Shown: one piece after another, positions 4,289 through 4,949 of the stretch | Layout: each line of letters opens with the position of its first letter | Numbering within the stretch: position 1 is the stretch's first letter | From: Escherichia phage S127 BCL3 | Sequence record: OQ626344 | Length of the DNA: 64,000 bases | Strand: one strand, 5' to 3' | The notes under the pieces: generated by a model | What the model was told of the DNA's origin: nothing | Database searches by the model: none | What the model saw: only the letters and a program-made list of their open reading frames with translations | Translations under genes and position numbers: made by a program

Positions 4289-4792
4289 AGCAGACTCCTC
4301 TTCAAGTTATAGAAAAACTCACTGTATCGCTTTGTAACGAGCTTTTCTATCAAACTGGTGCGATTGCCTTACTTGGTATAGTTTATATAACTGTGGAGCG
4401 ATTTAGGGGCCTTCTTGTCAGTTTCCACACATAAACTTTATCTGAACTCGCGCGGGAGGCTCTCAACCGACTCCTTCCGGCGCTGGCAAGCTTTCGTCGG
4501 TGGTCCACATTAGTGCTCGGCCTTTGGCCTGCGCTATCGCTTCGCTCCCACACATGTTAACAGTCCTGCATGTATGCACTTCTGTTATTGTGTGCACTAT
4601 GGAGGCCCGGCATCTCGCCCCTCGTAGGCGAGTGCCAATGAAGGGCCGACACTACCCATAATAAGTAATAAATTTAAAACATGGTACTTAGGATCTAGTA
4701 TATTCTACATAAGTTAAGTATATGTACTTTAGTACCATAAGTACTAGATCTTTTATTTTTTATTATTTAGTTATTTTAGTTATATTCTTTAT

Positions 4793-4875
4793 GTGTCCGT
4801 ATCACGGACAGTTAGTGTCCGTATTACGGGCAGATGTGTCCGCGTGACGGACAGTAGTGTCCGTATCACGGACAG
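4793..4875. repeat. four tandem 19-bp palindromic repeats (GTGTCCGTATCACGGACAG) at 21-22 bp spacing
   Basis: Copies at 4793, 4815, 4836, 4857, each an inverted repeat TGTCCGT-N3-ACGGACA, in a 660-bp non-coding region. Confidence 0.8.
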
Positions 4876-4949
4876 TTACTAACCTCTGTTCCAGAGTGAA
4901 CATAAAACATACAAATCCTTATAGTACAGATGTTTAAGTTTTTACTGGT

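Follow-up and report, generated by a model that had tools for sequence, protein, structure and literature searches.

Organization of the locus

The 64,000-nucleotide (nt) stretch of Escherichia phage S127 BCL3 (OQ626344) analyzed here, hereafter the window, contains an array of four phased palindromes next to the gene for a small winged-helix protein. The segment comprising both (4660-5300) is probably a replication origin module of the iteron type, the initiator of which consists of a DNA-binding domain only. The source phage belongs to Vequintavirus, the rV5-like myophages of Escherichia coli. Across region 3700-5400, 119 phage records show 90-99% identity, nearly all of them from Escherichia phages of this genus with genomes of about 137 kb.

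All genes around the array are carried by the minus strand. A polynucleotide kinase gene is followed by a phosphoesterase gene and by the 116-amino-acid (aa) open reading frame (ORF) of the winged-helix protein, and a 660-bp gap separates this ORF from the next gene, coding for a 192-aa protein. In gene direction the order is stop codon, 75-nt spacer, four palindromes, AT-rich tract, GC-rich block, about 100 bp and the next gene (Table 1). No ORF of the gap is convincing as a gene; those annotated in some records measure 31-56 aa, but in relatives this stretch is affected by single-base indels and by a deletion of 18 nt. The initial annotation of this DNA had described a 660-bp non-coding region with an AT-rich tract, and an array downstream of a possible helix-turn-helix (HTH) ORF at 4950-5300. 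This description holds, the ORF lying on the minus strand and the array beginning 75 nt past its stop codon.

Transcription diverges at about 6350, and the GC skew turns there too. The cumulative GC-skew minimum of the genome is located 1.5 kb from the array, which is weak evidence for an origin and was given little weight because the minimum coincides with the switch in transcription direction. No DnaA boxes were found in the region, and their window-wide count is at chance level.

Table 1. Features of the window in and around the proposed origin module.
Feature	Position	Strand	Remarks
tRNA cluster	1600-2411		
192-aa gene of unknown function	4288-3710	-	follows the 660-bp gap (4289-4949)
Conserved GC-rich block	4390-4659		270 bp, 55.6% GC; between AT tract and next gene
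AT-rich tract, proposed DNA-unwinding element	4660-4792		133 bp, 18.8% GC vs 42.5% in the window
Proposed iteron array, four copies of TGTCCG-N5-CGGACA	4794-4810, 4816-4832, 4837-4853, 4858-4874	dyad-symmetric	motif search
Spacer between stop codon and array	4876-4949		74-75 nt
Sigma-70-like site TGAACA-17-TATAGT	4897-4925	+	promoter scan; antisense into the proposed initiator gene; 22 nt from array
116-aa winged-helix protein, proposed initiator	5300-4950	-	orthologue of rV5 gp075 and Bas54 bas54_0212
Sigma-70-like promoter TTGACA-18-TATTTT with upstream TG	5335-5364	-	promoter scan; ahead of the proposed initiator gene

The palindrome array and the flanking DNA

The four palindromes start 22, 21 and 21 bp apart and form an array of 83 bp with 55% GC; the second copy carries a single arm mismatch (CGGGCA). 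They are the sole matches in the window when up to one mismatch is allowed, and dinucleotide-preserving shuffles give an expected count of 0.07 on average, with none of 100 shuffles reaching four. The search and the shuffles thus bear out the initial annotation, which had listed 19-mer inverted repeats at 4793, 4815, 4836 and 4857. The complete 136,993-bp genome of ECP26, a relative with 98% identity, again contains no other copies at up to one mismatch.

Conservation was assessed in an alignment of 13 Vequintavirus genomes, including the most divergent one found, the protein of which is 88.8% identical. The proposal of the initial annotation would have lost support if the repeats were not conserved in related genomes; they are present in all 13 relatives examined, and the proposal is not refuted on this count. 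The arms are near-invariant and most changes sit in the 5-nt centres; the arm changes comprise a T at the mismatched C of copy 2, seen in JEP1 and EduardKellenberger, and a single base that differs in an arm in FV3. Exact deletions of a 21-bp unit leave A135 and V18 with three copies. The centres read TATCA, TATTA and CGTGA and contain no A-tract, on which RepA_N iterons typically converge. The array appears as a 'repeat_region' assigned by Tandem Repeats Finder, with no interpretation, in the record of phage Alma, and is absent as an annotated feature from the other annotated records inspected.

Translation of the array was considered in two forms. A 33-aa ORF that covers the iterons was regarded as a by-product, since its VRDTD-type repeats follow from the DNA motif. 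Read-through of the stop codon of the 116-aa ORF was rejected, as it would add 27 codons and then meet a TGA inside the first iteron.

The adjacent AT-rich tract is extreme for this genome: in ECP26 it is the lowest-GC stretch of 120 bp (19.2%), the next-lowest having 25% and the genome as a whole 43.6%. Its sequence is near-invariant in the 13 relatives. The tract contains two GATC sites and two inverted repeats, GATCTAGTA/TACTAGATC (4692-4700 / 4742-4750) and ATGGTACT/AGTACCAT (4681-4688 / 4731-4738). The inverted repeats noted in the initial annotation are therefore present, and they proved to be interleaved, not nested.

On the other side of the array, the 25 nt just before it form the most variable stretch of the region among the 13 relatives. 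The sigma-70-like site in the spacer has an invariant -10 element and a -35 hexamer that varies at two positions; this predicted promoter may drive an antisense RNA. The equivalent of the promoter ahead of the 116-aa gene is annotated in the rV5 record as P76. A terminator scan found no terminator-like site between the gene and the array, and transcripts from the 5335-5364 promoter are predicted to run through the array. On the gene strand, the scan for sigma-70-like promoters found none within or just after the array and none in 4660-4800.

The winged-helix protein

The 116-aa protein matches PHROG 12838, 'replication initiation protein', at E 2.5e-80, with weak matches to other initiator families, and two Pfam families narrowly miss their cut-offs, DUF6945 with 27.1 bits against 28 and HTH_36 with 24.5 bits against 25. 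In RefSeq and in PHROG-based annotation it is already called a replication initiation protein, while many records label the gene as a transcriptional regulator from its HTH. By tblastn it was found only in genus Vequintavirus, with at least 88.8% identity across 118 phage records. IMG/VR yielded no close relatives, and a search of 5.8 billion proteins returned near-identical clusters only. A HMMER scan of 1.84 billion representative proteins revealed a handful of distant relatives of 182-228 aa, with 30-35% identity.

The decisive result on the protein, at the level of sequence comparison, is its match, among Protein Data Bank (PDB) entries, to 4RO3, the RepA N-terminal domain (NTD) from the Vibrio cholerae satellite PLE. 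This structure is matched at E 1.4e-6 by the single sequence and at 1.4e-16 by the family profile, residues 12-90 being aligned with residues 10-92 of 4RO3. The predicted fold points the same way. An AlphaFold2 model made with no alignment was unusable (pLDDT 42) and was replaced by a model based on an alignment with the distant homologues (pLDDT 81.9, pTM 0.78). The six best Foldseek matches of this model in the PDB are all RepA_N-type initiator domains, with 4RO3 on top (TM 0.65), followed by 4PQL, 4PT7 and 5KBJ, the last being a Rep-DNA complex by its PDB title. These six outrank every transcription factor, and repressors such as CodY come lower.

The protein ends one short helix past the wing. 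In lambda O and the RepA_N proteins, a C-terminal domain is thought to recruit the replisome. The downstream 192-aa protein was considered as a separated C-terminal domain and rejected; it has no Pfam or PDB match.

Occurrence of the palindrome in other genomes

IMG/VR was scanned for two adjacent copies of the TGTCCG-N5-CGGACA palindrome. The scan returned 43 loci, and in 22 of them the palindrome is repeated 3-7 times, spaced at 19-25 bp. No fewer than 18 of the 22 arrays are located inside an ORF of 133-420 aa that has an N-terminal winged helix and matches PHROG 'replication initiation O-like' families; such placement of the array within the initiator ORF is the arrangement of ori-lambda. 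At one locus the next gene matches a helicase-loader family. In five high-GC loci, the 40-50 bp that follow the array in gene direction have 28-35% GC, against 62-66% for the locus. The order of array and AT-rich dip is that of the window, where the AT tract flanks the array on that side as well.

When one genome from each bacterial species was scanned, 37 loci emerged. In Actinoplanes, Treponema, Kiritimatiellae and Parachlamydiaceae, prophage-like loci have O-like or DnaD-like initiator ORFs within which multi-copy arrays are found, with units 20-23 bp apart.

The proteins encoded at these arrays are also remotely related to that of the window. When the profile of the window family was compared with 1,266 ORFs near arrays, the top 12 matches were all initiator-like ORFs overlapping an array (E 5e-6 to 6e-4), and hhalign aligned the window family with the O-like family with 94.9% probability (E 4.5e-8).

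Distant homologues and their repeats

One of the metagenomic relatives (P0011) led by tblastn to two phage homologues, gp115 of Pseudomonas phage phiPMW and gp227 of an Erwinia Henunavirus (pEp_SNUABM_01). Both genes are located where promoters diverge, with RNA ligase, kinase or phosphoesterase genes next to them, and the phiPMW gene is also near tRNA genes, a neighbourhood like that in the window. Both have palindromic repeats of their own, together with AT- or purine-rich DNA, within 100 bp upstream of the gene. Those of phiPMW are three copies of GGACA-AAA-TGTCC (positions 2837-2913 of locus L050), inverted repeats around an A-tract, a form typical of RepA_N iterons; those of the Erwinia phage are two copies of TCAATTTGAGCATAGGC (positions 2864-2909 of locus L051). 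The presence of different repeats beside each homologue supports a cognate relation between protein and site. The contig of P0011 has no palindrome array and is uninformative in this respect, being only 1.7 kb long.

Several further features of these homologues were observed. The phiPMW half-site is that of the window in the opposite relative orientation. P0011 and P0012 (182-217 aa) have acidic tails ending in ...DPDAPF and ...DEAPF, which resemble the partner-recruiting tails of single-stranded DNA-binding protein (SSB) and T7 replication proteins; the window protein has no acidic tail of this type. A third metagenomic protein, P0013 (228 aa), appears by eye to fuse an N-terminal GIY-YIG/T5orf172-like motif to the RepA-NTD-like domain. 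These are the modules of the ICP1 origin-directed nuclease Odn, in the opposite order.

Transposon insertions in Bas54

A HIDEN-SEQ map of transposon insertions has been published for Vequintavirus Bas54 (bioRxiv 10.1101/2025.11.20.689424). The orthologue of the 116-aa gene, bas54_0212, was hit at 17 of 20 TA sites with a mean of 13.6 reads, and bas54_0213, the 33-aa ORF over the iterons, at 4 of 7 with a mean of 18.1 reads; both are classified as Intermediate. The kinase gene (33 of 36 TA sites, mean 170.6 reads), the phosphoesterase gene (26 of 27, 139.9) and bas54_0216, the 192-aa gene (31 of 34, 139.5), are Non-essential. Two small ORFs annotated in the GC-rich block are bas54_0214 (5 of 5 sites, mean 134.9 reads; not classified) and bas54_0215 (4 of 6, 78.4; Intermediate). 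Insertions are thus depleted about 10-fold in the segment formed by the gene and the iterons, with the flanking genes spared (140-190 mean reads in the neighbouring genes, 78-190 when the small ORFs of the GC-rich block are counted). Such a joint fitness cost is the pattern expected of a protein and its cis site.

The same study reports zero insertions in an intergenic region of about 2.5 kb between convergent gene blocks (bioRxiv 10.1101/2025.11.20.689424). By its position in the ECP26 genome, this region corresponds to approximately 43,100-45,660 of the window. It is ORF-poor and repeat-rich: an inverted repeat of 18 nt (44815/44949) and a direct repeat of 20 nt (44706/44980), both perfect, occur in it, and ACTGTTTACGCATA is present three times.

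Comparison with known systems

The closest characterized relative, PLE RepA, belongs structurally to the RepA_N initiator class, to which it was assigned by structure and not by sequence (Barth et al., NAR 2020, PMC7145576). It shifts the semi-palindromic 'repeat 3' iterons in electrophoretic mobility shift assays, these iterons are required for PLE replication, and RepA-driven replication needs a helicase of superfamily 1B (SF1B) (PMC7145576). The window shares with PLE a DNA-binding domain that is homologous over almost its whole length and palindrome-containing iterons in non-coding DNA beside the initiator gene. As in PLE, replication would have to use the phage replisome and not a helicase or primase activity of the initiator, and the rV5-like phages encode the class of helicase that PLE needs (SF1B, Pif1/RecD-like). 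However, PLE RepA has a C-terminal domain, whereas the window protein stops after the N-terminal one, and the PLE iterons are three semi-palindromic units of about 30 bp, in contrast to four palindromes of 17-19 bp at 21-22 bp spacing. Furthermore, PLE is a satellite and its iterons are essential for its replication, while the module of the window resides in the genome of a virulent phage itself and is dispensable in Bas54.

Ori-lambda comprises four iterons, each a 19-bp imperfect inverted repeat, with an AT-rich flank, inside gene O (PMC7466680). The window likewise has four imperfect inverted repeats of about 19 bp, phased at about two helical turns, an AT-rich region distal to the N-terminal coding part of the initiator, and transcription predicted from the promoter of the initiator gene. 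The start codon and the first iteron are 426 nt apart, within the range of 238-534 nt in O-like genes. Unlike in ori-lambda, the iterons are located 75 nt past the stop codon and not in the middle of the gene, and their sequence is unrelated (TGTCCG/CGGACA versus TCCCTC/GAGGGA). The P-binding C-terminal domain of O is absent, and no P-like loader is encoded next door.

With the staphylococcal RepA_N initiators of pSK41 and pTZ2162 (4PQL, 4PT7, 5KBJ) the protein shares the dimeric winged-helix fold (Foldseek E 4e-4 to 2e-3, TM about 0.6, 107 columns), and both systems have iterons with inverted sub-repeats, their binding being a prediction in the window. Similarity of sequence alone is not significant here (E about 1.2). 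RepA_N iterons usually converge on an A-tract, with the origin inside repA, and the plasmid proteins, unlike that of the window, have host-specific C-terminal domains.

The uncharacterized O-like initiators of IMG/VR and prophage loci (e.g., L019, L027, L043 and L068) have identical iteron arms and geometry, with 3-7 copies at 20-25 bp, a remotely homologous winged helix and an AT-rich dip after the array. Two of the O-like proteins, from loci L011 and L037 (133-143 aa), consist of little more than the N-terminal domain and are partial precedents for a domain-only initiator. Unlike the array of the window, those of the O-like loci are translated, as VRxxD / CPxxGQ repeats. Their contigs are mostly 20-60 kb in size, and several carry methyltransferase, terminase or helicase-loader genes beside the initiator.

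The proposed replication origin

The initial annotation had suggested that the array binds a dimeric regulator or an initiator cooperatively and is possibly an origin or an early/late switch. The initiator and origin are favoured, because the protein is homologous in sequence and fold to proven iteron-binding initiator domains (the PLE RepA N-terminal domain and staphylococcal RepA_N), because the same arrays lie within lambda-O-like initiator genes in the order iterons, then AT-rich DNA, and because no other 120-bp stretch of the genome is as AT-rich as the tract next to the array. The early/late switch gained no specific support.

We infer the following course of binding, unwinding, helicase entry and transcription. 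Dimers of the 116-aa RepA_N-like domain would bind the four 17-bp palindromes, the half-site centres of which are 11 bp apart. The spacing of 21-22 bp, corresponding to two helical turns, would place the dimers on one face of the DNA and enable a wrapped complex like the lambda O-some. Strain from this complex would open the adjacent 133-bp AT tract, at which the phage primase-helicase and/or an SF1B helicase of the RecD/Pif1/Dda type could enter. Transcription from the promoter ahead of the gene would pass through the origin and may help its activation. The presence in rV5 of genes for a primase/helicase and a Pif1/RecD-like SF1B helicase (PMC3606486) is consistent with this scheme.

Several observations weigh against an origin of this kind, or limit its role. 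The protein lacks a C-terminal domain; Pfam RepA_N (PF06970) gave no match at E <= 1, and no match to Pfam Phage_rep_O passed the threshold. The iterons lie outside the gene, unlike in lambda and the IMG/VR loci, and the palindromes of the phiPMW and Erwinia homologues are in the promoter region of the gene itself, which fits autoregulation too. Many palindrome pairs exactly 20 bp apart occur in Myxococcales/Kofleriaceae and Burkholderiales (among genome contigs L061-L097) with no initiator-like ORF, so the palindrome alone is not diagnostic of origins; these pairs probably represent a separate operator system with the same palindrome. The insertion-free region at about 43,100-45,660 is a competing candidate, as an essential cis element may reside there, be it a further origin, a packaging site or RNAs. 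Finally, neither the gene nor the iteron segment exceeds class Intermediate in Bas54; the module is dispensable and therefore not the sole replication route. The proposed origin module would raise the fitness of the phage, being important to it but not essential, and is probably not its only means of initiation.

In phage T4, individual origins are dispensable, as other origins and recombination-dependent initiation compensate for their loss; the T4 origins use promoter-derived R-loops and not an iteron-binding initiator. By analogy, redundancy of the T4 kind would explain the Intermediate transposon phenotype.

A bolder version of the origin reading can be offered only tentatively, as a possibility of no great likelihood. 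The domain-only protein would be a complete origin-marking factor, remodelling the palindromes and the AT tract so that the SF1B helicase or the primase-helicase enters with no need of a recruiting domain, and the GC-rich block would supply a structured RNA or an R-loop primer. If this is true, the window protein and the 133-143-aa O-like proteins of IMG/VR would form a class of minimal 'domain-only' initiators, and the replicons of satellites such as PLE and of phages would be linked by descent.

An array of iterons beside an AT tract is of the textbook kind; what is new is the domain-only initiator, the detachment of the iterons from the gene and their occurrence in a large virulent phage. 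The rV5 genome paper located no origin by skew analysis, only switches in transcription direction (PMC3606486). The literature searched includes no paper that connects Vequintavirus with iterons and none in which the repeat sequence appears, and it defines no origin for the rV5-like phages. Such phages are often isolated with a view to biocontrol and therapy, and the module provides a testable origin candidate consisting of about 220 bp of DNA and one small gene, two parts that act as a unit in published transposon data. A defined origin fragment would be useful in phage engineering, in shuttle or helper constructs. The module also raises the question of how an initiator with only a DNA-binding domain hands the origin to the replisome. 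TGTCCG-N5-CGGACA arrays represent a recurrent iteron type, found in lambda-O-like initiators of many phyla.

Alternative functions of the array

The array could instead be an operator, at which a winged-helix regulator binds the palindromes cooperatively and either blocks or tunes the read-through that leaves the early operon for the genes downstream (4288 onward), or controls a promoter in the AT tract or the 4897-4925 promoter, with no role in replication. This function agrees with the label of transcriptional regulator that many records give the gene, and with the location of the phiPMW and Erwinia palindromes just upstream of the homologue gene among annotated promoters. Conservation of the AT tract in sequence, and not just in composition, would suit a promoter or factor sites, and non-essentiality in Bas54 is compatible with a regulator. 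Winged-helix repressors (CodY, SlyA/MarR) do occur among the sequence and fold matches, but as weaker ones, the closest relatives in both respects being initiator domains. The same arrays elsewhere are embedded in initiator coding sequence, where an operator role is implausible. In addition, the promoter scan was negative on the gene strand in 4660-4800, and a single cluster of sites in 137 kb is unusual for a temporal switch. In Bas54, insertions downstream of the array are neutral, whereas the array itself is costly to disrupt. An operator array is therefore unlikely.

It is quite improbable that the locus is a captured fragment of a satellite- or plasmid-type replicon that no longer fires and now serves as a packaging or recombination hotspot or in competition with RepA_N-type satellites. 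The satellite origin of the closest characterized relative, the lack of a recruiting domain in the protein and the confinement of the module to one genus all speak for such a fragment. Phages are also known to reuse the domain: the ICP1 nuclease Odn consists of this domain fused to a T5orf172 nuclease (PMC8263062), and the metagenomic P0013 apparently combines a GIY-YIG-like domain with it. However, the protein is at least 88.8% identical in 118 records, the DNA of the region is 90-99% identical in 119, and the AT tract is near-invariant in 13 relatives and extreme for the genome. The gene and the iterons share a fitness cost, the protein contains no nuclease domain, and no terminase gene is adjacent.

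A role of the palindromes as tandem hairpins of the read-through RNA, in its stability, processing or termination, is hardly credible, even though each unit can fold into a 6-bp stem with a 5-nt loop, the 3' untranslated region of the gene contains the units and RNA-repair genes are nearby, since the arms are conserved as sequence with no compensatory changes in the 13 relatives, some copies in other phages break the pairing (e.g., CAGACA), the motif recurs within protein-coding initiator genes, and neither a U-tract, a terminator in the terminator scan nor an Rfam family match was found.

Other features of the window

The GC-rich block beyond the AT tract is restricted to 118 Vequintavirus records, with no match beyond the genus, and shows no similarity to the rest of the window. 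Single-base indels and the 18-nt deletion, which removes a hairpin in relatives, argue against a coding function, and its reading as a gene was rejected. The two strands give fold z-scores of -2.7 and -3.7, and only 1 of 69 predicted pairs is compensatory. No Rfam family matches the block. At gathering thresholds, Rfam identified only tRNAs in the whole window, and at permissive thresholds region 4250-4990 gave only chance-level matches (rli43, mir-154). The block may be a structured RNA or a part of the origin region.

Among the records similar to the region, 18 (MG0656xx) are named 'Campylobacter phage', yet their identity with E. coli Vequintavirus genomes is 96-97% over its length. One of them, A135, is flagged UNVERIFIED and carries no annotation. 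The Campylobacter host labels of these records look doubtful.

In the tRNA cluster, ARAGORN predicted a 99-nt tRNA with the four-base anticodon atcc at 1844-1942 on the minus strand. The record of Bas59 has its equivalent as tRNA-Lys, and an intron or a long variable arm may account for the additional nucleotides. Just upstream of the cluster, at 2881-3084, is a second GC-rich island (at least 56% GC) that has no sequence similarity to the 4390-4659 block. Only implausible ORFs cover it, although some records list a hypothetical protein for one of these, and the island may represent another non-coding RNA.

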